Below the pieces are notes generated by a model that was not told where the DNA came from, made no database searches, and saw only the letters and a program-made list of their open reading frames with translations. A program made the position numbers and the translations under genes. 64,000 bases of DNA from an uncultured Chloroflexia bacterium (GTDB lineage Bacteria > Chloroflexota > Dehalococcoidia > DSTF01 > JALHUB01): NCBI GenBank assembly GCA_963703345.1, contig OY969814.1, forward strand, positions 160,001 through 224,000. Reading direction: 5' to 3'. Shown here one piece after another: positions 24,938 through 32,375 of the stretch. The stretch's first letter is position 1. Each line of letters starts with the position of its first letter.

Positions 24938-26845
24938 TCAGCACAGTAGGCGGTTCAGGGTCTCCCGGACTTCGCGTATCTTGAAGGGTTTCGCCAGGCA
25001 GACGTTGGGGACTCTCTGGAGGAAATCGCGCGTCTCGGCGCTGACCGTGTCGCCGGTGATGAACACGGTGTTCCGAGCAAGTTCGGAGTCCATCTGCTTG
25101 ACGCGCTGATAGAGTGCCTGGCCACCCATCCCGGGCATCTTGATGTCTGTAATCAGCATGTCGTAGCCGTGGTCCGCCAAATACGATAGGGCCTCCTCAC
25201 CGTTGCTGGCCGTGTCGACCCTGTGGCCGTCGGCGGCCAGCACGTCGCGAAGCAGCGCCAGGATGTTCTCCTCATCGTCCACGACGAGTATGCGTCGGCT
25301 GATCTCCGCCGGCTGGAGCTCCGGCTCGCATTCGGGCGCCGGCAACTCCGGCCCTTCCACGATCGGCAGTTCGACGACAAACGTCGCGCCCCGATTCGGA
25401 CGGCTTTCCACGCGAATCCGGCCGGCGTGGTCATCGACGATGCCGTAAGAGATCGTCAGACCCAGGCCGGTCCCCTGGCCACCCTCTTTCGTCGTGAAGA
25501 AGGGATCGAAGACGCGGCGCATGTTCTCGGCTGGAATTCCGATTCCGTCGTCCGTGAATGAGAGGAGGACGTAGCCCTTCTCGGCGCGCGTGCGGATCTT
25601 CAACTTGCCTTTGCCGTGCGCGCTCAGCATGGCTTGCTCGGCGTTGGTGATGACGTTGAAGAAGACCTGCTGGATCTGATCGGGGTCCGACATCGTCAGG
25701 GGCAGGTGCGGATCGAGGTCAAGGTCGAGGTCGATGTTTTTGACCCGAAGGTCGTAGCTGCGCAGCTCGAGCACGCGTTCGAGCAGGGTGTTGAGGTTCA
25801 CGAGGCCCTTCTGCGCTTTCCGCCTTCGCGCGAACGAGAGCAGGTTCTGGACGATCTTGGCGGCGCGCTCCGCCTCGCTGTAGATGGTCTCGACATCCCG
25901 TCGCGTCTGTTCATCCAGATTGCGATTGAGAAGCAACTGGGCAAAGCCGGTAACGCCGGTCAAGGGGTTGTTCAATTCGTGCGCCACGCCCGATACTAGT
26001 TGGCCGACGCTGGCCATCTTCTCCGACTGAAGCAGCCTCTCCTGCATCAGGTGCTCTTCCGTCACGTCTCGGAGGACGATGACAACGCTTCCTTCGCCGC
26101 CAACTGTCGTGGCTGTCGCGGAGATATGGCGCTGGTTGTCTTCGCTGAAGCTAAAATCCTTGTGCTGCGGTGTGCCGGGTTGGGTCAGCGCTTGCTGGGC
26201 CAGCGCATCGAGCGGCGTGAGTCTGATCGACGCTTCGACCCCTTCGGAGCGGCCGGTCAGAGCAGCGATGAGGGCGCCGGCCCGAGCGTTCGATAGCACC
26301 GTCTTCATCTCCCTGTTCACCACCATTACGCCGTCCTGGAGACCGTTCACGACGTATTCGGCGAGCTTTCTGTCAACGAGGCCGGCCTCGTCCAGCCGCT
26401 CGAGGAACGCGGACGCCAGTTGAGCGGAGGCGTAGACGATGGCGCTCTTCTCGGCCGGGAAGGCGTCGATTGCTGCCGCACTGACTCTAATGAGCCCAGT
26501 TGCTCGGCCGCGGACGATGAGAGGCGCATCAATGGCGGAGAGCGCTGGCCCACCCCAGGCCTCGCCTCTGACAGGCCCGTTCCCCAGGTGGAAAACGTCC
26601 GGGGGCATTGCGACGCAACTCTGATGAGCGCCACCGGAGAAGCGGCGAAGGCCGTCCAGCACTCCCTCGGCGAGCTTCTGGGCGAACCGAGGTTGCAGAG
26701 GACGCGACGCAAAGACGACGGACCGGTCCTCGCCGTCGCGGCAAAGCACAGTGGCTGCGGCGTCGAACTTAAGGAGCGGACGCAGCGCCTCGAACAGGAG
26801 TCGCAGCACCTCGGTCTGAGTCAGAGATTGACGTTCGGACGGCAT
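24938..26845 (-). CDS. Hybrid sensor histidine kinase (GAF-like, PAS, HisKA, HATPase, REC)
   Basis: GVAHELNNPL; NAEQAM; DDGIGI; FDPFFTTK; GTGLGL; ILVVDDE...TDIKMPG...LAKPF. Confidence 0.93.
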   Translation of the reverse strand: MPSERQSLTQTEVLRLLFEALRPLLKFDAAATVLCRDGEDRSVVFASRPLQPRFAQKLAEGVLDGLRRFSGGAHQSCVAMPPDVFHLGNGPVRGEAWGGPALSAIDAPLIVRGRATGLIRVSAAAIDAFPAEKSAIVYASAQLASAFLERLDEAGLVDRKLAEYVVNGLQDGVMVVNREMKTVLSNARAGALIAALTGRSEGVEASIRLTPLDALAQQALTQPGTPQHKDFSFSEDNQRHISATATTVGGEGSVVIVLRDVTEEHLMQERLLQSEKMASVGQLVSGVAHELNNPLTGVTGFAQLLLNRNLDEQTRRDVETIYSEAERAAKIVQNLLSFARRRKAQKGLVNLNTLLERVLELRSYDLRVKNIDLDLDLDPHLPLTMSDPDQIQQVFFNVITNAEQAMLSAHGKGKLKIRTRAEKGYVLLSFTDDGIGIPAENMRRVFDPFFTTKEGGQGTGLGLTISYGIVDDHAGRIRVESRPNRGATFVVELPIVEGPELPAPECEPELQPAEISRRILVVDDEENILALLRDVLAADGHRVDTASNGEEALSYLADHGYDMLITDIKMPGMGGQALYQRVKQMDSELARNTVFITGDTVSAETRDFLQRVPNVCLAKPFKIREVRETLNRLLC

Positions 26846-27152
26846 CCTGCACCCAAGCTTCTTTACGACGGAGGCATAGTCAGGCTAGCATAAAGATCCT
26901 GCGGCGGCAATCGGGAATTGCGCTCGAATCATCGTTAACCTGTAGTCAGAACCGTTCCCCTTACCTTCGAAAAGCGCCTAGGCGTATCCATCCGCCCCGG
27001 TTGGTGAAGAGCCGCGTGTGCCTCAGCAATCGCGTTCGCCACAATACGGGGTTCTCCTTATATGACAAAATCCCGTGATCATCGATACTGATTCACGGCA
27101 AGGATACCTGTGGCGGGGAATCCACCGATTCAACGAGACTTGGAGGTGCCTA

Positions 27153-27938
27153 GTGGCTTCCCAAGCCGACGCCGCCGCAGCCGCCGCGATCACGCCCTTT
27201 TCCGAACAGCCCCCCCAGCCAGAACTACGCGACCTCGTCCATGACTACATGCCGCTGGTGCGACACGTGGTCAACCGCCTCGTCGTTGGTTCGAGCGGCT
27301 CATCCATCCTTCAGTACGAGGACATGGTGAGCTGCGGCATGCAGGGCCTCATCGAAGCCTATCACTCATTCGACGCCACCAAGGGGGCGAAGTTCTCCAC
27401 CTATGCGCTGCCGCGCATTCGAGGGGCGATTCTCGATGCCTTGCGCGCTGCTCATCCGCTGCCCCGCTCTCTCCAGAAATTCTCCTCGGAGATCGAAAGC
27501 ACGATCAGCATTCTCCACAACGAGTTCGGGCGGGCGCCAACACGGGCGGAGCTTGCGGAGCGGATGGGCATGCCAATGCCTCAGTTTCTGGCCTCCCTCA
27601 GTCAGGCAAACGTGAAGATCGTGTCGTTGGATAATCTGGCTGACATGGCCGTGAACGGCAACAGTGAAAGGCTCGTGGAAATGGCGGACGAGGACCCCAG
27701 CATCGACCCGGACCAGGTCGCACAGCAATCGATGGTCAAGACAAAGCTCCAACAGGCAGTCAGCAATCTGCCGGAGCGCGAGAGGATTATCGTCCAGCTC
27801 TACTACATCGAATCGCGTTCTTTGAAAACCATCGGGAGGGCGCTGGGCATATCGGAATCCCGCGCTTCCCAGTTACGGCAGCGGGCGCTCCGGCGCCTGC
27901 GAGCAGCCCTCGTACAAGATATGGAGGAGGCGGCCTAA
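27153..27938 (+). CDS. FliA/WhiG-family (sigma28-type) RNA polymerase sigma factor
   Basis: EDMVSCGMQGLIEA; KFSTYALPRIRGAILDALR; region 4 IGRALGISESRASQL; GTG start after GGAGG. Confidence 0.92.
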   Translation: MASQADAAAAAAITPFSEQPPQPELRDLVHDYMPLVRHVVNRLVVGSSGSSILQYEDMVSCGMQGLIEAYHSFDATKGAKFSTYALPRIRGAILDALRAAHPLPRSLQKFSSEIESTISILHNEFGRAPTRAELAERMGMPMPQFLASLSQANVKIVSLDNLADMAVNGNSERLVEMADEDPSIDPDQVAQQSMVKTKLQQAVSNLPERERIIVQLYYIESRSLKTIGRALGISESRASQLRQRALRRLRAALVQDMEEAA

Positions 27939-28085
27939 AGTTGTCTGCGCCGCTGGCGACCCTCTTATTTCCGCGATGCTCCTCAAGAACCTCAGCGCAT
28001 CACGTCTCCGCTTACAGGAATGCACGGTCATGGTTTGGGAGTTTCCCTATAGGAGTCTGAAGCGCCGGGCGCTAGCATAGGGACG

Positions 28086-29237
28086 ATGGTTAACGGCAGG
28101 GAGGTCTTGAGATTCGGAGTCGCCGGCTCCGGCAACCGGAGTCAGGCGTATGCCCACGTCCTTGCGCAGCTAGAAGGGGCGCGCATGGCGGCGATAGCGG
28201 CGGGAAGTCGCGTCGCGGCCGATTTGCAGAGGAACATCCCGGGGCTGGCCGTCGAGAGGGACGTGAGCGGCCTGATCAGGCGCCCCGGCATTGACGCCCT
28301 GATCTTCGCCGATCCGGTGGTCGACCTCACGGCTCTGGTCCGACGAGCCCTCCTCGCTGACAAGCACGTACTGGCGACCGTGTCGTTGCCCATGACCTGC
28401 GGTCAGTTCGAAGAGCTCGCGTTGCTGGCGCGAAGACACGGCCGGCTGCTGATGTTCACTGAAGAGCGCTCGTTCCAGCCGGGGCTCGTCTTTCTGAAAT
28501 GGATGCTTTCCGGCGGAAAGAACCTCTGGCACCCGAGCTACGTTCGCGCCGTCTCGGCGCCCGGCGGCAACGGTGCGACTCCGCTAATCGGCGTCGTCAT
28601 CCTAGAAGAGCTGGCGCTGTGTTCTCGCCTTCTCGGGGAGAGCCCGACATCTGTCAGCGGAATTGTCCCTCGAGCGAACACGGAAACGGTACCGACTGCG
28701 GCTTTCCTCAACATGCTCTACGCGGACGGGCGAGCCGTCTCGCTGCAGATGAGCTCGACAGAGACGCAGGAGACCCGGCAGTGGACGCTAGCCACTCCGT
28801 CCAAGACTGTGCTGCTCGACGAGTGCGACCTGCGTTCGCCGCTGCGGATCGTCTCATCCGATCCAGAGGCGGCGCGCGGCGCCCTGCTTCGCGTCAATCC
28901 TCCCGTTCCGCTTTCGGAGTGGCCGACTGAGAGTACGGTCACGCCGCCGCTCCAATCTACGGACGTGAAGCTTGAGCAGTGCCGGCATTTCATGCAGAGC
29001 GTGATGAAGCCGGACCTGACTCAGACCAACGCGTCGTTCTGGGCGGAAGTGGCGCTCATATTCGAGGCGGTCCAGGAATCCATTCGCCTGGGGGGCATGC
29101 CAGTCAACCTGAACGCGGCGACGGAGCCGCAGCGGCGAGTTGCCGGCGAACGCCCCAAATTGCGTCTCATCCACGGGAAGGGAACAGGCGACATCGAGGC
29201 CCGGAAGAGGCCAGCGTTGACCCTCGTTCCACGCTAA
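28086..29237 (+). CDS. Gfo/Idh/MocA-like fold protein, catalytically degenerate
   Basis: FGVAGSG Rossmann start; ALLADKHVLA followed by TVS instead of EKP. Confidence 0.65.
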   Translation: MVNGREVLRFGVAGSGNRSQAYAHVLAQLEGARMAAIAAGSRVAADLQRNIPGLAVERDVSGLIRRPGIDALIFADPVVDLTALVRRALLADKHVLATVSLPMTCGQFEELALLARRHGRLLMFTEERSFQPGLVFLKWMLSGGKNLWHPSYVRAVSAPGGNGATPLIGVVILEELALCSRLLGESPTSVSGIVPRANTETVPTAAFLNMLYADGRAVSLQMSSTETQETRQWTLATPSKTVLLDECDLRSPLRIVSSDPEAARGALLRVNPPVPLSEWPTESTVTPPLQSTDVKLEQCRHFMQSVMKPDLTQTNASFWAEVALIFEAVQESIRLGGMPVNLNAATEPQRRVAGERPKLRLIHGKGTGDIEARKRPALTLVPR

Positions 29238-29272
29238 GGAAAGTTCCTCGCTCCAAGGATCGTGCCACGTCC

Positions 29273-29467
29273 CTATTCTGAAGCCGGCTTGGAGCCCTTC
29301 CCGTTACCGCGTTGCTCTTCGTCGCAGAGCTCCTCGCGCAGAACGATGATCTCCTCCGGAGCGCAGATGCCCAGTTTGACGCGGTCCCGTTCTACGCCGA
29401 GAACTCGCACTAGGATGTTGTCGTGGATGACGATCGCCTGGTCAATCTTGCGAGTCAGGATAAGCAT
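29273..29467 (-). CDS. csrA: Carbon storage regulator CsrA/RsmA
   Basis: MLILTRKIDQAIVI...VKLGICAPEEIIVLREEL. Confidence 0.93.
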   Translation of the reverse strand: MLILTRKIDQAIVIHDNILVRVLGVERDRVKLGICAPEEIIVLREELCDEEQRGNGKGSKPASE

Positions 29468-29722
29468 TGGTTGTCACGCTATCATCGGGCATCGGAGTGA
29501 GGTCTTCCCGCCATACCCCTGGCTCTGACTCGACCTCTTTTGCCGCCGAGCCCGCATCTTTTCTTGCTGCAACGTAGTTATCGGCAGGAGTTGCCGGAAC
29601 AATCAGAGGCGGAGGCTACGGGGATGAAGAAAAGGCGGGCTCGCGACAAAGATAAGGGATGAATCGTGGTCCGGGTGGACTATGTCGAAGAAGAGACGTG
29701 TTGCGGAAGAAACCCCGCCCAC

Positions 29723-30007
29723 CTATTCAGGGAGGACCATGGTTGCGCGGCGAAGGACTTCTTGCGCCGCTTCCAGTGAGTCGACGGCCAGGCAATCGCA
29801 ATAGGTAGCATAGATGCACTTGTCTAGGAGCCTCGTCCCTTCGAAGTTGAGCTGTCCACCATAGCTCTTCCTGAGGTCAAGGAGACGCTGGAGCCGTCGA
29901 AGAAACATCTGCTGCAGCGCTATCTGGGGGCATTCGGCCAGCAACGGAGCCAGCGCCGTCTCTTCCTGCTCGGTGTCGGTTGCGCTAAATCCTTGCCATT
30001 CGTCCAT
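29723..30007 (-). CDS. Hypothetical protein (helical, YCDC motif)
   Basis: 94 aa, 11 nt downstream of the response regulator; SD-like GAGGA. Confidence 0.7.
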   Translation of the reverse strand: MDEWQGFSATDTEQEETALAPLLAECPQIALQQMFLRRLQRLLDLRKSYGGQLNFEGTRLLDKCIYATYCDCLAVDSLEAAQEVLRRATMVLPE

Positions 30008-30018
30008 ATCGGGATTCC

Positions 30019-30795
30019 TCAGACGGCGGTCGCCTCGTCCGTCATGCCGGGCGCGGCCTCCAGGTTCACGATCCCCTTGCGGATGGCGTAGCGAATCAGG
30101 TCGGTGCGGTTCTGGGCGTGGAGTTTGCTCATGATGTGCGCCTTGTGCGCCTCGACCGTCTTGACGCTGATGAAGAGGTCCTCCGCCACGCGCTGGTTCG
30201 AGTGACCCTCCGCGATTAGCTGCAGCACTTCGCGTTCGCGGCTCGTCAGCAGCTCATATCCCGCCTTGCCGTCGCCCTTCTGCGCCTGCCAGAGGAATTC
30301 GCTGATGGGGACAGTGTCGGAGATGATGGAACTGAAATAGGTGTTGCCGCGGTGGACGGCCTGAATCCCCAGGAGCAGCTCTGTGACGTCGGACTTCTTG
30401 ACAACGTAGCCGGAAGCGCCGGCGCGCAGGGCGGCCATTATCTGGTCGTCCTCCATGTAGCCGGTCAGGATGAGCACTCTCGTCTTGGGCACCCGCTTGC
30501 GTATCTGCCGCGTCGCCTCCAGGCCGTTGAGGCCCTGCATGACCATGTCCATCAGGACGACGTCCGGCAAAAGCTTCTCGGCGCTCTCTACGGCTTCGCG
30601 CCCGTTGCTGACGTCGCCGACCACTTCCACCTCCTGATGCGCATCGAGAAGGAGTCGCAGCGCCTGCCGCAGCACGGCGTGATCGTCGACGAGGAGGATC
30701 CGAATCCGACCGTTGGAGCGGCTCCAGGGCGACCCCTCAGTGGCATTCCTTGCTCGTGGCGCCAATCCCTTAGCGGTACCAGTTCCATCTTCCAT
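30019..30795 (-). CDS. NarL/FixJ-family response regulator
   Basis: LLVDDH; PDVVLMD; LTSREREVLQLIAEGHSN...SVKTVEAHKAHIMSKL. Confidence 0.95.
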   Translation of the reverse strand: MEDGTGTAKGLAPRARNATEGSPWSRSNGRIRILLVDDHAVLRQALRLLLDAHQEVEVVGDVSNGREAVESAEKLLPDVVLMDMVMQGLNGLEATRQIRKRVPKTRVLILTGYMEDDQIMAALRAGASGYVVKKSDVTELLLGIQAVHRGNTYFSSIISDTVPISEFLWQAQKGDGKAGYELLTSREREVLQLIAEGHSNQRVAEDLFISVKTVEAHKAHIMSKLHAQNRTDLIRYAIRKGIVNLEAAPGMTDEATAV

Positions 30796-30918
30796 ACAGC
30801 ACTCCTTGCTGACCTGCCGCCCGGATATCCTTCAGATTCAAACCCTGCTGACGGGCAAAAAATCTATCACAATCATCCAGAATTGGCAAGCGAAAGCTTG
30901 CGGAAAAGTTCTCTTACG

Positions 30919-31137
30919 CTATTGCTCGTCATCCAGCGGGCCATACAGGGTGCTTAGGCCGCCGCTTGGACCACCCATCGTCAGCTCCTGGTAATCATCG
31001 AAGCGTTCGGTTGTTTCCAGTCGCGCCGGGTATTCGCGCCTGGCGTCGCAGATCTTGCAGACAGCGCTGATGACTTCGTTGTGGGGTTCCGTGAGCACCC
31101 AGTGGTGCTGGCAAAGGCGGACCGCTGTCTCTTCCAC
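30919..31137 (-). CDS. Small putative Zn-binding protein (CxHHW...CxxC)
   Basis: CQHHWVL...CKICDARREY; GTG start after GAGGA. Confidence 0.65.
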   Translation of the reverse strand: MEETAVRLCQHHWVLTEPHNEVISAVCKICDARREYPARLETTERFDDYQELTMGGPSGGLSTLYGPLDDEQ

Positions 31138-31377
31138 TTTGATTCCTCTGACTCCCTTCAGAATCATCTGCTGGCAGTCTAGCTTCCCAAGCCGTCCATC
31201 TCTATCAGGGGAAACCCTTACATAATCGACATTATGCCCCTATTTCCGAAGACCGCCTGAGGGCAGGTGATCAACGGACGGGACGGTACGCTAAGGTGGG
31301 GAAATGAGCGTCGTCGAGGGAAGCGGCGACGAGCGCCCGAAAGAGGCGCCGCGATTCAGTTCTGTCCGGCTGGCGGC

Positions 31378-31755
31378 CTAAGTGATGAAGCGGTGGGACA
31401 GGAGAGGCTCAAGACGTCTGTGTCGCAGATAGCGCAGGTACACCTCGTGCGCGTTGTTGAGTGCGGTGCAGATGGCTCTTTGCGGCGGTCCCGCGTATCG
31501 CCGCTGAAACTCGGCCGTCGCTGCGTCGAATTCGGTCCGCAGGCTCCTGCCCAAGAGGAGGCTCGTCAGGAGGCGGTTTGCTGCCGGCAAAGGTCCGCTC
31601 ACCTCAACAGCAGTTATCAGAGCGTCCTCGCCTTCCACCTCCAGCTCGACGAGGACTATCGGGGCGTCGCTGGGTGAGAGGCTCTGAGGCAGTCGGGCGT
31701 GGCCGACGAAGACGAGCCTCTCCTGGTCCGCTTCTTCAGATTCGGCGTTGCTCAT
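31378..31755 (-). CDS. DUF3870-like protein
   Basis: FVGHARLPQ; RRYAGPPQRAICTAL pattern. Confidence 0.65.
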   Translation of the reverse strand: MSNAESEEADQERLVFVGHARLPQSLSPSDAPIVLVELEVEGEDALITAVEVSGPLPAANRLLTSLLLGRSLRTEFDAATAEFQRRYAGPPQRAICTALNNAHEVYLRYLRHRRLEPLLSHRFIT

Positions 31756-31874
31756 GGTCGCATCCTTGCCCACAAGAGAAAACGCGCCAGTAACAACACG
31801 GACGCTAGCGCGACAAGGGCGGGTTGTGGGGAAAGACGGAGGAAAGGAAGCGCAAAGATCGACATAAGCGGCGC

Positions 31875-31909
31875 AAGAAAAGAGGAGCGCCAGTTATGGC
31901 GCTCCTCTT
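31875..31909 (-). terminator. Rho-independent terminator
   Basis: AAGAGGAGCGCCA-TAAC-TGGCGCTCCTCTT followed by TTCTT on the minus strand, right after the Zn-ribbon gene. Confidence 0.8.
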
Positions 31910-31936
31910 GCTTATACTTGCGTCCCAGTCCGCGCT

Positions 31937-32146
31937 CTAGAGGCGAAGTTTGCCGTGCGAAGGCTGGCGGCGTCTCTGGCGGACGCGACCGCTCTCGTCT
32001 TCTTCCAGGAGCTCGATTGCCGGAGGCGATACCGCCTCGTGGACGTATCCACAGGAGAGGCAACTGCTGTAGGTTCCGTACCAGTCTCTCTCAGCGATCA
32101 TTGAACCCCGGCAACGCGGGCAGACTCGAGGCAGCGTCGATTCCAT
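31937..32146 (-). CDS. 69-aa zinc-ribbon protein (CxxC-x16-CxxC) with basic tail
   Basis: CPRCRG...CLSCGY; SD GGAGG; own promoter, riboswitch and terminator. Confidence 0.85.
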   Translation of the reverse strand: MESTLPRVCPRCRGSMIAERDWYGTYSSCLSCGYVHEAVSPPAIELLEEDESGRVRQRRRQPSHGKLRL

Positions 32147-32199
32147 CTAGTTTTCCTCCGGCAATACTACTCTGTGAACTGCTGGTCGAGTCCCTTCGC

Positions 32200-32307
32200 T
32201 GCCTCCGAGGTTAGCTGTCGGGTTCGGGTTGAAAGGCCACCCTACCCGCTCCTCGCGGGATTCACCCCTAGAACGTGGTTCCCCCGTTCCCAAGAGGGTT
32301 TCGGCAC
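32200..32307 (-). ncRNA. c-di-AMP riboswitch (ydaO/yuaA)
   Basis: Minus strand TGCCGAA..GGGAACGGGGGAACCA..GGGGTGAATCC..TAGGG..CCCGAACCCGACAGCTAACCTCGGAGGCA contains the ydaO consensus blocks in order. Confidence 0.92.
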
Positions 32308-32346
32308 TCATATCAGGCAGTCATAACCAGCGAAACAACCGCCTTT

Positions 32347-32375
32347 ATTATATGTTCCGCTTCCCTGCCCGTCAA
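32347..32375 (-). promoter_or_regulatory. Near-consensus sigma70 promoter driving the riboswitch leader
   Basis: TTGACG-N17-TATAAT. Confidence 0.85.

Follow-up and report, generated by a model that had tools for sequence, protein, structure and literature searches.

Known flagellar regulons of the sigma-28 type include those of Escherichia coli FliA and of Bacillus subtilis SigD, the latter with CsrA/FliW feedback. The -10 element of sigma-28 promoters is GCCGATAA with a GC extension, according to the available text of PMC12784957. That sigma-28 has been rerouted to pili and cyclic di-GMP (c-di-GMP) is already known from the accessible parts of two reports (PMC8325347; PMC12871210), and the closest precedent for the locus described here is the WhiG–RsiG system of Rubrobacter radiotolerans, in which a sigma-28 factor of a non-sporulating unicell is associated with TAAA/GCCGATAA-type promoters before type IV pilus and diguanylate cyclase/phosphodiesterase (DGC/PDE) genes (PMC8325347). 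Archaella have already been described in the Chloroflexota (PMC12488501), and flagella are reported, in the available text of a study of Dehalococcoidia/Tepidiforma flagellar clusters, to be ancestral in the class and to have been lost repeatedly (PMC10284905). Here, we analyse a sigma-28/CsrA regulatory locus at positions 24938-32375 of a 64-kb stretch of DNA (hereafter the window; positions 160,001 to 224,000 of contig OY969814.1) from an uncultured Dehalococcoidia bacterium. We put at roughly 60% the probability that this locus is the head and tail of a flagellar cluster without its structural genes, and that it acts as master switch for a programme of motility and attachment comprising an archaellum, Tad pili and c-di-GMP enzymes.

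Results

The genome that holds the window (G000) is a single contig of 2.28 Mb and 95.85% complete; outside the window, genes were called with our own hexamer-based caller (2,106 genes, whose starts may be off). Unlike the genomes behind known flagellar sigma-28 regulons, it yielded no flagellin, FlhA, FliW, MotA or CheW in whole-genome profile searches, no export apparatus or stator genes were found in it, and its best FlgM match reached 15.6 bits, below the cut-off of 25. When 19 flagellar proteins of a relative were searched against it with tblastn, 17 had no match, and the remaining two matched the sigma factor and an unrelated locus at 26% identity. FlhA occurs in 0 of the 81 genomes of the Dehalococcoidia order to which the window belongs, and flagellin in 21 of 161 genomes of the class, none of them from this order. 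The initial annotation had listed nine genes and a c-di-AMP (cyclic di-AMP) riboswitch and had pointed out that flagellin, flgM and fliW are missing from the window; Pfam, TIGRFAM and Rfam profiles place all ten features where they had been put, and the absence extends to the whole genome, in which no standard flagellar regulon was found.

The arrangement of the locus is conserved. We compared gene neighbourhoods at 25 loci in 25 genomes from five families of this one order, and found the hybrid kinase at 20 loci, the protein with the GFO/IDH/MocA fold (GFO protein) at 23, csrA at 23, the YCDC protein at 18, NarL at 19, the CxHHW protein at 19, the DUF3870 protein at 10 and the zinc (Zn) ribbon at 17; some of the absences are contig ends, or reflect a block split in one family. 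An orthologue of the sigma factor, with 57-96% identity, is present in 29 of 30 relatives. Gene order and orientation are mostly those of the window, synteny is kept in all five families, and the grouping of these genes is not due to chance. Family f4 keeps the NarL block at another genomic place, and in several genomes a single-domain receiver or a second kinase is inserted between the YCDC gene and csrA. The G+C content of the locus (0.60-0.63) is the same as that of its flanks. As separate observations, a gene for an AN1/B-box-like Cys/His-rich protein, not found in the window, lies between the kinase and sigma genes in families f2 and f6 (L043:7701-8117, L045, L114), and in a close relative (G002, L022) csrA seems to be partly deleted along with its sigma-28 promoter.

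The initial annotation missed that the block appears to be the regulatory head and tail of an ancestral flagellar cluster. In flagellated relatives, the series riboswitch–Zn ribbon–(CxHHW)–NarL–(YCDC) opens the flagellar operon, and csrA stands at its tail, before flagellin. NarL orthologues in flagellated Dehalococcoidia are 64-76% identical to that of the window and carry a near-identical helix, ISVKTVEAHKAH. Among 13 strong NarL orthologues outside the order, flbD/motA is directly next in 6 and the Zn ribbon comes before 8; the riboswitch was present at 16 of 19 loci scanned, and at 7 of 7 in another scan of relatives. The gene order is Zn ribbon, CxHHW, NarL, receiver-type response regulator, flbD and motA in G120, and NarL, YCDC, flbD and motA, then fliA and flgK further on, in G038, while in G050 a single strand bears an uninterrupted series that starts with a NarL paralogue (56%), passes fliA and flgK and ends in csrA and fliC. 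In the window, only 255 nt separate the YCDC gene (29723-30007, minus strand, 3' of narL) from csrA (29273-29467, minus strand), and the block therefore reads as the two ends of such a cluster brought together, the structural genes between them having presumably been lost by deletion. Two other loci, in genomes without a flagellin match, look like independent collapses of flagellar clusters that kept regulators only: Zn ribbon–NarL–fliA remains in G168 (L357), and fliA–csrA–flgM-like…narL in G053 (L117). Examples of flagellar operons of flagellated Dehalococcoidia that begin with the riboswitch, the Zn ribbon and NarL are found at L300, L302, L303, L305 and L307. Our literature searches found no paper on such a head, and the available text on the Dehalococcoidia/Tepidiforma clusters describes neither it nor its survival after flagellar loss (PMC10284905).

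Part of the block belongs to an older layer, since Zn ribbon, YCDC, DUF3870 and PIG-L genes adjoin in families where no sigma-28 was found. It could be argued from this that the locus is a decaying leftover, in which former flagellar-cluster neighbours and an older housekeeping block lie together with no common function, and the occurrence of the Zn ribbon…YCDC…PIG-L block without sigma-28, the split of the block in one family and the single-gene losses in G002, G006 and G029 would all agree with such decay. Yet the sigma factor and NarL (about 65-95% identical across the five families) are well conserved, the csrA promoter described below is kept in most relatives, and the predicted targets are strongly non-random; we regard a functionless leftover as very improbable and largely refuted by conservation.

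The promoter of csrA points to a link between a sigma-28 factor and csrA. An exact TGCCGATA lies upstream of csrA in 40 of 45 distinct orthologous regions, with a C-rich CT(A/G)A-like -35 element some 16-17 nt before it, and agrees with the published -10 element and its GC extension, a promoter type shared with flagellar sigma-28/CsrA–FliW regulons (PMC12784957, available text). In the window, this promoter occupies 29578-29609 on the minus strand (-35 CCTCTGAT, 29602-29609; -10 TGCCGATAA, 29578-29586). We trained a promoter matrix on csrA sites only and ran it over 1,952 called genes of G000; the window site is of the training type and scores best in the genome. No other gene of the window cluster has a sigma-28 site. 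At five loci of flagellated relatives, no sigma-28 promoter was seen before csrA (best score 6.4), whereas here csrA has a strong one of its own. The initial annotation had joined sigma-28 to translational control, and the conserved promoter backs this link.

The matrix ranks highest csrA and the gene for an extracytoplasmic function (ECF) sigma factor at the head of a Flp/CpaB/CpaE/TadA/B/C operon, followed by otsA, by an unknown gene upstream of an ATPase gene, and then by GGDEF/HD-GYP genes. Six of the 20 GGDEF/HD-GYP genes are among the 17 of 1,952 genes that score at least 14 bits (Fisher p 6e-9), or 5 of 19 (p 3e-7) without one GGDEF/HD-GYP gene that was added after inspection of the list. 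At the ECF/Tad operon, a loose rule finds [TC]GCCGA between 60 and 170 nt upstream of 28 of the 29 orthologues; 14 of the 29 have a site of at least 18 bits, a score reached by 0 of 290 shuffles. The promoters themselves suggest that a sigma-28 factor transcribes csrA, the ECF sigma/Tad operon, otsA and the c-di-GMP genes, and a predicted regulon of pili and DGC/PDE genes resembles that of WhiG–RsiG. The ECF/Tad locus (G000:C1:1571046-1578351, L128) comprises, under its sigma-28-type site, the ECF sigma gene, a small overlapping open reading frame (ORF), a Flp pilin gene and cpaB/cpaE/tadA/B/C; further tadB/tadC-like genes, read from the sequence, lie near 2119288-2121173. The otsA-like gene under a sigma-28 site (G000:C1:1968785-1970415, L129) is split into frames of 418 and 125 aa, by a frameshift or an assembly error.

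The sigma factor of the window (27153-27938, plus strand; longest ORF from 27075) belongs to the FliA/WhiG family (TIGR02479, 201.3 bits against a curated cut-off of 189.6) and has regions 2, 3 and 4 (Pfam r2/r3/r4) without region 1.1. Its region 2.4/3.0, ILDALRAAHPLPRS, aligns with E. coli FliA and keeps the D, the R and the PRS-motif arginine, which we take to be D81, R84 and R91 in E. coli FliA numbering, the residues that read the GC extension and CGA. A role of the PRS-motif arginine in -10 recognition is given in the available text of PMC12784957.

A second sigma-28 paralogue, present in most relatives, is followed by an HD-GYP gene (both within G000:C1:1612208-1614659, L046) whose sigma-28 site is kept at 7 of 10 loci of this paralogue. 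Since it has the same -10-reading residues in region 2.4/3.0, it might read the promoters described here, leaving the sigma factor of the window with a different, small regulon. We consider this improbable: the sigma factor of the window is far better conserved and is linked to csrA at 23 of 25 loci, the paralogue seems to be split in G003 and G029, and G024 (96% complete, 120 contigs) has no match to it at 1e-30 and yet keeps the csrA and ECF sites.

The initial annotation had suggested a developmental or lifestyle switch, on the ground that sigma-28 homologues drive differentiation in Streptomyces (WhiG) and in Chlamydia. A switch towards development or dormancy, as with WhiG in Streptomyces sporulation, finds some encouragement in the fact that Streptomyces WhiG is the best PDB match of the window sigma factor and in promoters on otsA and a small stress-type gene. 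It is, nevertheless, highly unlikely, because Spo0A was not found in the genome, and because a genome scan for the RsiG motif E(X)3S(X)2R(X)3[Q/H](X)3D found it in no called small protein, its two occurrences being in a protein of 1,025 aa and in an uncalled ORF of 55 aa. In addition, the positions of WhiG K57, G61 and R62 hold R, N and R in the sigma factor of the window (A, N and R in the paralogue), and pili, archaellins and c-di-GMP enzymes are the leading predicted targets. The lifestyle part of the suggestion is thus favoured by the predicted appendage and c-di-GMP targets and the developmental part is not; most likely, this is a switch of motility and attachment rather than of sporulation. 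The missing RsiG motif and the replaced K57/G61 also set the system apart from the Rubrobacter switch, as do predicted targets that include archaellins, Tad pili through an ECF sigma factor, csrA and otsA, and its setting, in which NarL and a c-di-AMP riboswitch belong to the same flagellum-derived block.

Genomes of the order encode an archaellum, which the initial annotation had overlooked. The archaellin family PF01917, whose model also matches ArlF/G, is found in 63 of the 81 order genomes, and G000 has a full arl operon (G000:C1:1769376-1775869, L207) with arlB, arlF/G, arlH (KaiC-like), the arlI ATPase gene and arlJ, the last with a weak T2SSF match only and named from its position and size, as well as an orphan arlB (1503351-1503938, L141). 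This agrees with the Chloroflexota archaellum as described in the available text of two papers, namely a complete arlB-CDE-like-G-F-H-I-J cluster that excludes flagellar genes and often occurs with Tad pili (PMC12488501, PMC13319060). That text names no sigma factor or promoter, whereas here we propose a regulator set and a promoter grammar.

For arlB, a chosen subset of the order genomes supplied 60 distinct upstream regions. A GGGTG-N4-CACCC box, often in tandem, is present in 36 of 60 (4 of 600 shuffles), and the three top genes for it in G000 are both arlB genes and a LuxR-type gene divergent from the arl operon, the site of which is shared with the operon. This LuxR protein is atypical, with no acceptor Asp by eye; such a gene stands beside archaellins at 13 of 40 loci, and its product likely binds the box. 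Exactly 21 nt behind the box, CGA is found in 33 of 36 regions, which equals the spacing of the csrA-type promoter. Sites of the csrA type (at least 7 bits) occur in 13 of 60 regions against 5 of 300 shuffles, and some promoters are hybrids in which the activator box is joined to a CCCCTGAT -35 element. One or other promoter form stands before 44 of the 60 arlB genes of the order, compared with 1 of 33 in 17 archaellated genomes outside it (18 of 21 loci usable, 330 nt upstream scanned), in which no sigma-28 was found (0/5 above the TIGR02479 cut-off). One flagellin promoter of a flagellated relative shares its TATCGA form with the orphan arlB.

Another reading would keep a Rubrobacter-like switch only, in which sigma-28 drives csrA, Tad, otsA and the c-di-GMP enzymes, and the archaellin promoters with an activator box are read by an ECF sigma factor, either induced by sigma-28 or unrelated to it. 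Nothing but CGA(A/C) is retained in the 33 arlB promoters that have the box, the genome holds two related ECF sigma factors, and the orphan arlB form TCATCC-N15-TCGA presumably resembles the mycobacterial SigK consensus. This reading is harder to reconcile with the excess of csrA-type sites at arlB, with the hybrid promoters and the csrA-class spacing of CGA, and with the near absence of the pattern where no sigma-28 was found, and we consider it unlikely. Two further elements were noted in these leaders. A motif common to the cpaB and arlB upstream regions of G000 was discarded, as it is not kept in the arlB leaders of relatives, and a recurring AAAGGAGG(T)G element lies 60-110 nt before the start codon in arlB/flp leaders inside and outside the order, separate from the real ribosome-binding site.

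The NarL/LuxR response regulator (30019-30795, minus strand; Pfam) follows the gene of a small CxHHW...CxxC zinc-binding protein (30919-31137, minus strand, with the ORF extending to 31167 and the start set from an orthologue alignment), which also stands before NarL-flbD-motA in G120. A 16-bp palindrome, TARGGG-N4-CCCYTA, precedes the CxHHW-narL-YCDC genes (27 of 32 upstream regions; 12 of 160 shuffles), the ECF sigma gene (19 of 29; 7 of 145) and, more weakly and with up to two mismatches, the sigma-28 gene (10 of 55; 8 of 275). In the window, TAAGGGTTTCCCCTGA (31205-31220) and a sigma-70-type -10 TAGACT (31176-31181) 24 nt downstream make up a predicted activator-dependent promoter of CxHHW-narL-YCDC (31176-31220, minus strand), and a second palindrome of this type, TACGGGGTTCTCCTTA (27045-27060, no strand assigned), is a weak candidate NarL site between the kinase and sigma genes. 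TAnnnT lies 23-24 nt behind the palindrome in 27 of 33 CxHHW regions, a geometry that suggests an autoregulating activator, and we infer that NarL is its binder. The hybrid sensor kinase (24938-26845, minus strand, divergent from the sigma gene; Pfam HisKA, HATPase, REC and a weak PAS; H-box HELNN at residue 289) would be the likely signal input of NarL.

The C4 zinc-ribbon protein (69 aa; 31937-32146, minus strand) has an invariant basic tail, QRRRQPSHGK(L/I)RL, is 77-99% identical within the order and falls into unnamed Chloroflexota and phage clusters in the Atlas. Its gene is preceded by a full-length c-di-AMP (ydaO) riboswitch aptamer (32185-32316, minus strand; RF00379, 99.2 bits against a gathering cut-off of 38), which ends 39 nt before the start codon, and, 5' of the riboswitch, by a sigma-70 promoter recognised by sequence, TTGACG-N17-TATAAT (32347-32375, minus strand). 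A sigma-70-type site is present in 21 of 21 Zn-ribbon upstream regions; therefore, c-di-AMP would enter independently of sigma-28. The genome has one diadenylate cyclase. The folding of the leader does not surpass that of shuffled sequences (z 0.51), and inspection by eye showed no evident terminator; translational control by the riboswitch is therefore only presumed. Between this unit and the CxHHW gene lies the accessory DUF3870 gene (31378-31773, minus strand; PF12986, E 6e-12). Two more c-di-AMP riboswitches occur in G000, at 1849398-1849531 before genes for a GT2 glycosyltransferase and then a sortase, and at 523768-523906 before a trehalose-6-phosphate synthase-family (GT20) gene, and a second zinc-ribbon ORF of the CPRC…CxxC type, with a GGA-rich leader, lies at about 728205. 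Elsewhere in the window, there is a selenocysteine tRNA gene (RF01852; 1712-1805, plus strand).

Active GFO/IDH/MocA oxidoreductases carry a GxGxxG dinucleotide loop and an EKP motif. The GFO protein encoded right after the sigma factor (28086-29237, plus strand) has the fold, which was confirmed, and is a probable pseudo-enzyme: EKP is found in 0 of 37 orthologues and GxGxxG in 2 of 37. The subfamily has one weak match in 200 other genomes of the phylum. Its disordered C-tail ends in RKRPALTLVPR, a motif seen in 29 of 37 orthologues and weaker in family f2. Pseudo-enzymes that act as regulators elsewhere include Gal80 and RssB. The tail is similar, in motif only, to the ClpX-binding XB peptide of the adaptor SspB, RGGRPALRVVK (PMC3983244, available text), and by this analogy an anti-sigma or ClpXP adaptor role for the GFO protein is offered as a lead only.

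CsrA itself (PF02599, 68.3 bits against 27; TIGR00202, 69.1, just below 70.1) begins with MLILTR and keeps R6 and R44, residues with a role in RNA binding. A simple intergenic scan of GGA density gave, among the output listed, no clear candidate for a CsrB-like RNA. A 96-aa protein with two weak tandem CsrA-like halves is encoded at G000:C1:1153933-1154223, and f4 genomes have a second full CsrA. The YCDC protein, whose unnamed family comprises 818 clusters at 50% identity, is modelled as a three-helix bundle (predicted local distance difference test score, pLDDT, 80). Fold searches did not place it with Spo0E-like phosphatases, histidine phosphotransfer proteins or anti-sigma factors, as there was no Foldseek match at E 0.001 and the best matches by VIA (Z 8.8) were generic helical bundles. 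The family is present in 37 of 161 class genomes, many of them without a sigma-28 match, which weakens the idea of a dedicated anti-sigma-28 factor.

Discussion

Our data suggest a sequence of events by which a flagellar hierarchy could have come to serve other appendages. The riboswitch–Zn ribbon–CxHHW–narL–YCDC head would once have led into flbD-motA-motB…fliA…flgK, with csrA before flagellin; the middle would then have been lost, and a sigma-28, the pseudo-enzyme and the kinase now lie beside csrA on the opposite strand. In the present locus, phosphorylated NarL, with the hybrid kinase as its likely input, would bind TARGGG-N4-CCCYTA and activate its own operon from a sigma-70 promoter, and could also act at the sigma-28 gene and the ECF-sigma/Tad promoters. 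A sigma-28 factor, probably that of the window, would transcribe csrA, the ECF sigma gene of the Flp/Tad operon, otsA, several GGDEF/HD-GYP genes and the archaellins, the last from either full CTAA-N16-GCCGA promoters or a CGA core 21 nt behind the GGGTG-N4-CACCC box, to which the atypical LuxR protein encoded beside the arl operon would bind. The CsrA induced by sigma-28 could exert delayed translational feedback on mRNAs, and the GFO pseudo-enzyme may replace FlgM/RsiG as an anti-sigma factor or ClpXP adaptor. The c-di-AMP riboswitch would control the Zn-ribbon protein apart from sigma-28, and may reach narL by read-through.

In its strongest form, this scenario holds that the flagellar hierarchy outlived the replacement of the flagellum by a horizontally acquired archaellum and captured the new motor. 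The c-di-AMP-riboswitch/Zn-ribbon/NarL head, as an undescribed flagellar master regulator, would then run archaellins, Tad pili and c-di-GMP turnover together with sigma-28 and CsrA, and the pseudo-enzyme with its SspB-like ClpX tail would have taken the place of FlgM as off-switch. We advance this full form tentatively, at somewhat less than even odds.

Several observations weigh against our interpretation. The genomes compared are related, so that the counts and p-values given above overstate the support. In quick trees without bootstrap, only one of them with an RpoD outgroup, the sigma factor of the window falls in an order-specific clade outside the flagellar FliA clade (SH-like approximate likelihood ratio test, SH-aLRT, 95); an approximately unbiased (AU) test, however, does not reject a sister relation to that clade (p 0.37). 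Neither arlB promoter of G000 has the GC extension, and both get negative scores from the csrA matrix; an ECF sigma factor could read them; many of the outside arlB genes behind the 1 in 33 comparison lie within arrays. HisKA-type hybrid kinases are not usual partners of NarL regulators, 5 of the 25 loci have no kinase, and the NarL palindrome, under a two-mismatch rule, is found in 1 of 11 orthologue regions outside the order against 7 of 110 shuffles. The arlB leaders show an excess of A(N)GGA (1.85 vs 0.83), but the excess is equal (1.82) in lineages where CsrA was found in only 1 genome; control of archaellin by CsrA is therefore not supported, and we have dropped the idea of its repression by CsrA. 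Lineages that gave no sigma-28 match have the YCDC protein and the Zn ribbon as well, and this persistence, together with the sigma-70 promoter of the riboswitch/Zn-ribbon unit, means that the single circuit drawn by the initial annotation was overstated. Finally, because the second sigma-28 has the same -10-reading residues, either of the two may read the sites, a limit on assigning sites that was also met by a WhiG study (PMC12871210, available text).

The function of bacterial archaella has been shown only recently. Bacterial RNA polymerase cannot read archaeal promoters, and a transferred archaellum cluster must therefore be re-wired. The terms FliA and 'sigma 28' are absent from the bacterial-archaellum papers that we searched, and in the wider literature covered, which left out subscription papers, figures and supplements, we found no account of this block, of how bacterial archaella are transcribed or of their control by sigma-28. 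What the locus adds is a set of named regulators together with two promoter grammars of exact spacing, for which the archaellated lineages without sigma-28 serve as a natural negative control. It also suggests a candidate master regulator that lies downstream of a c-di-AMP riboswitch and would act on the flagellar genes of Dehalococcoidia, including cultured flagellated members such as Tepidiforma if the same head is present there. The regulatory block is real, conserved and derived from a flagellar cluster, and most likely steers the archaellum, Tad pili and c-di-GMP turnover in this order.

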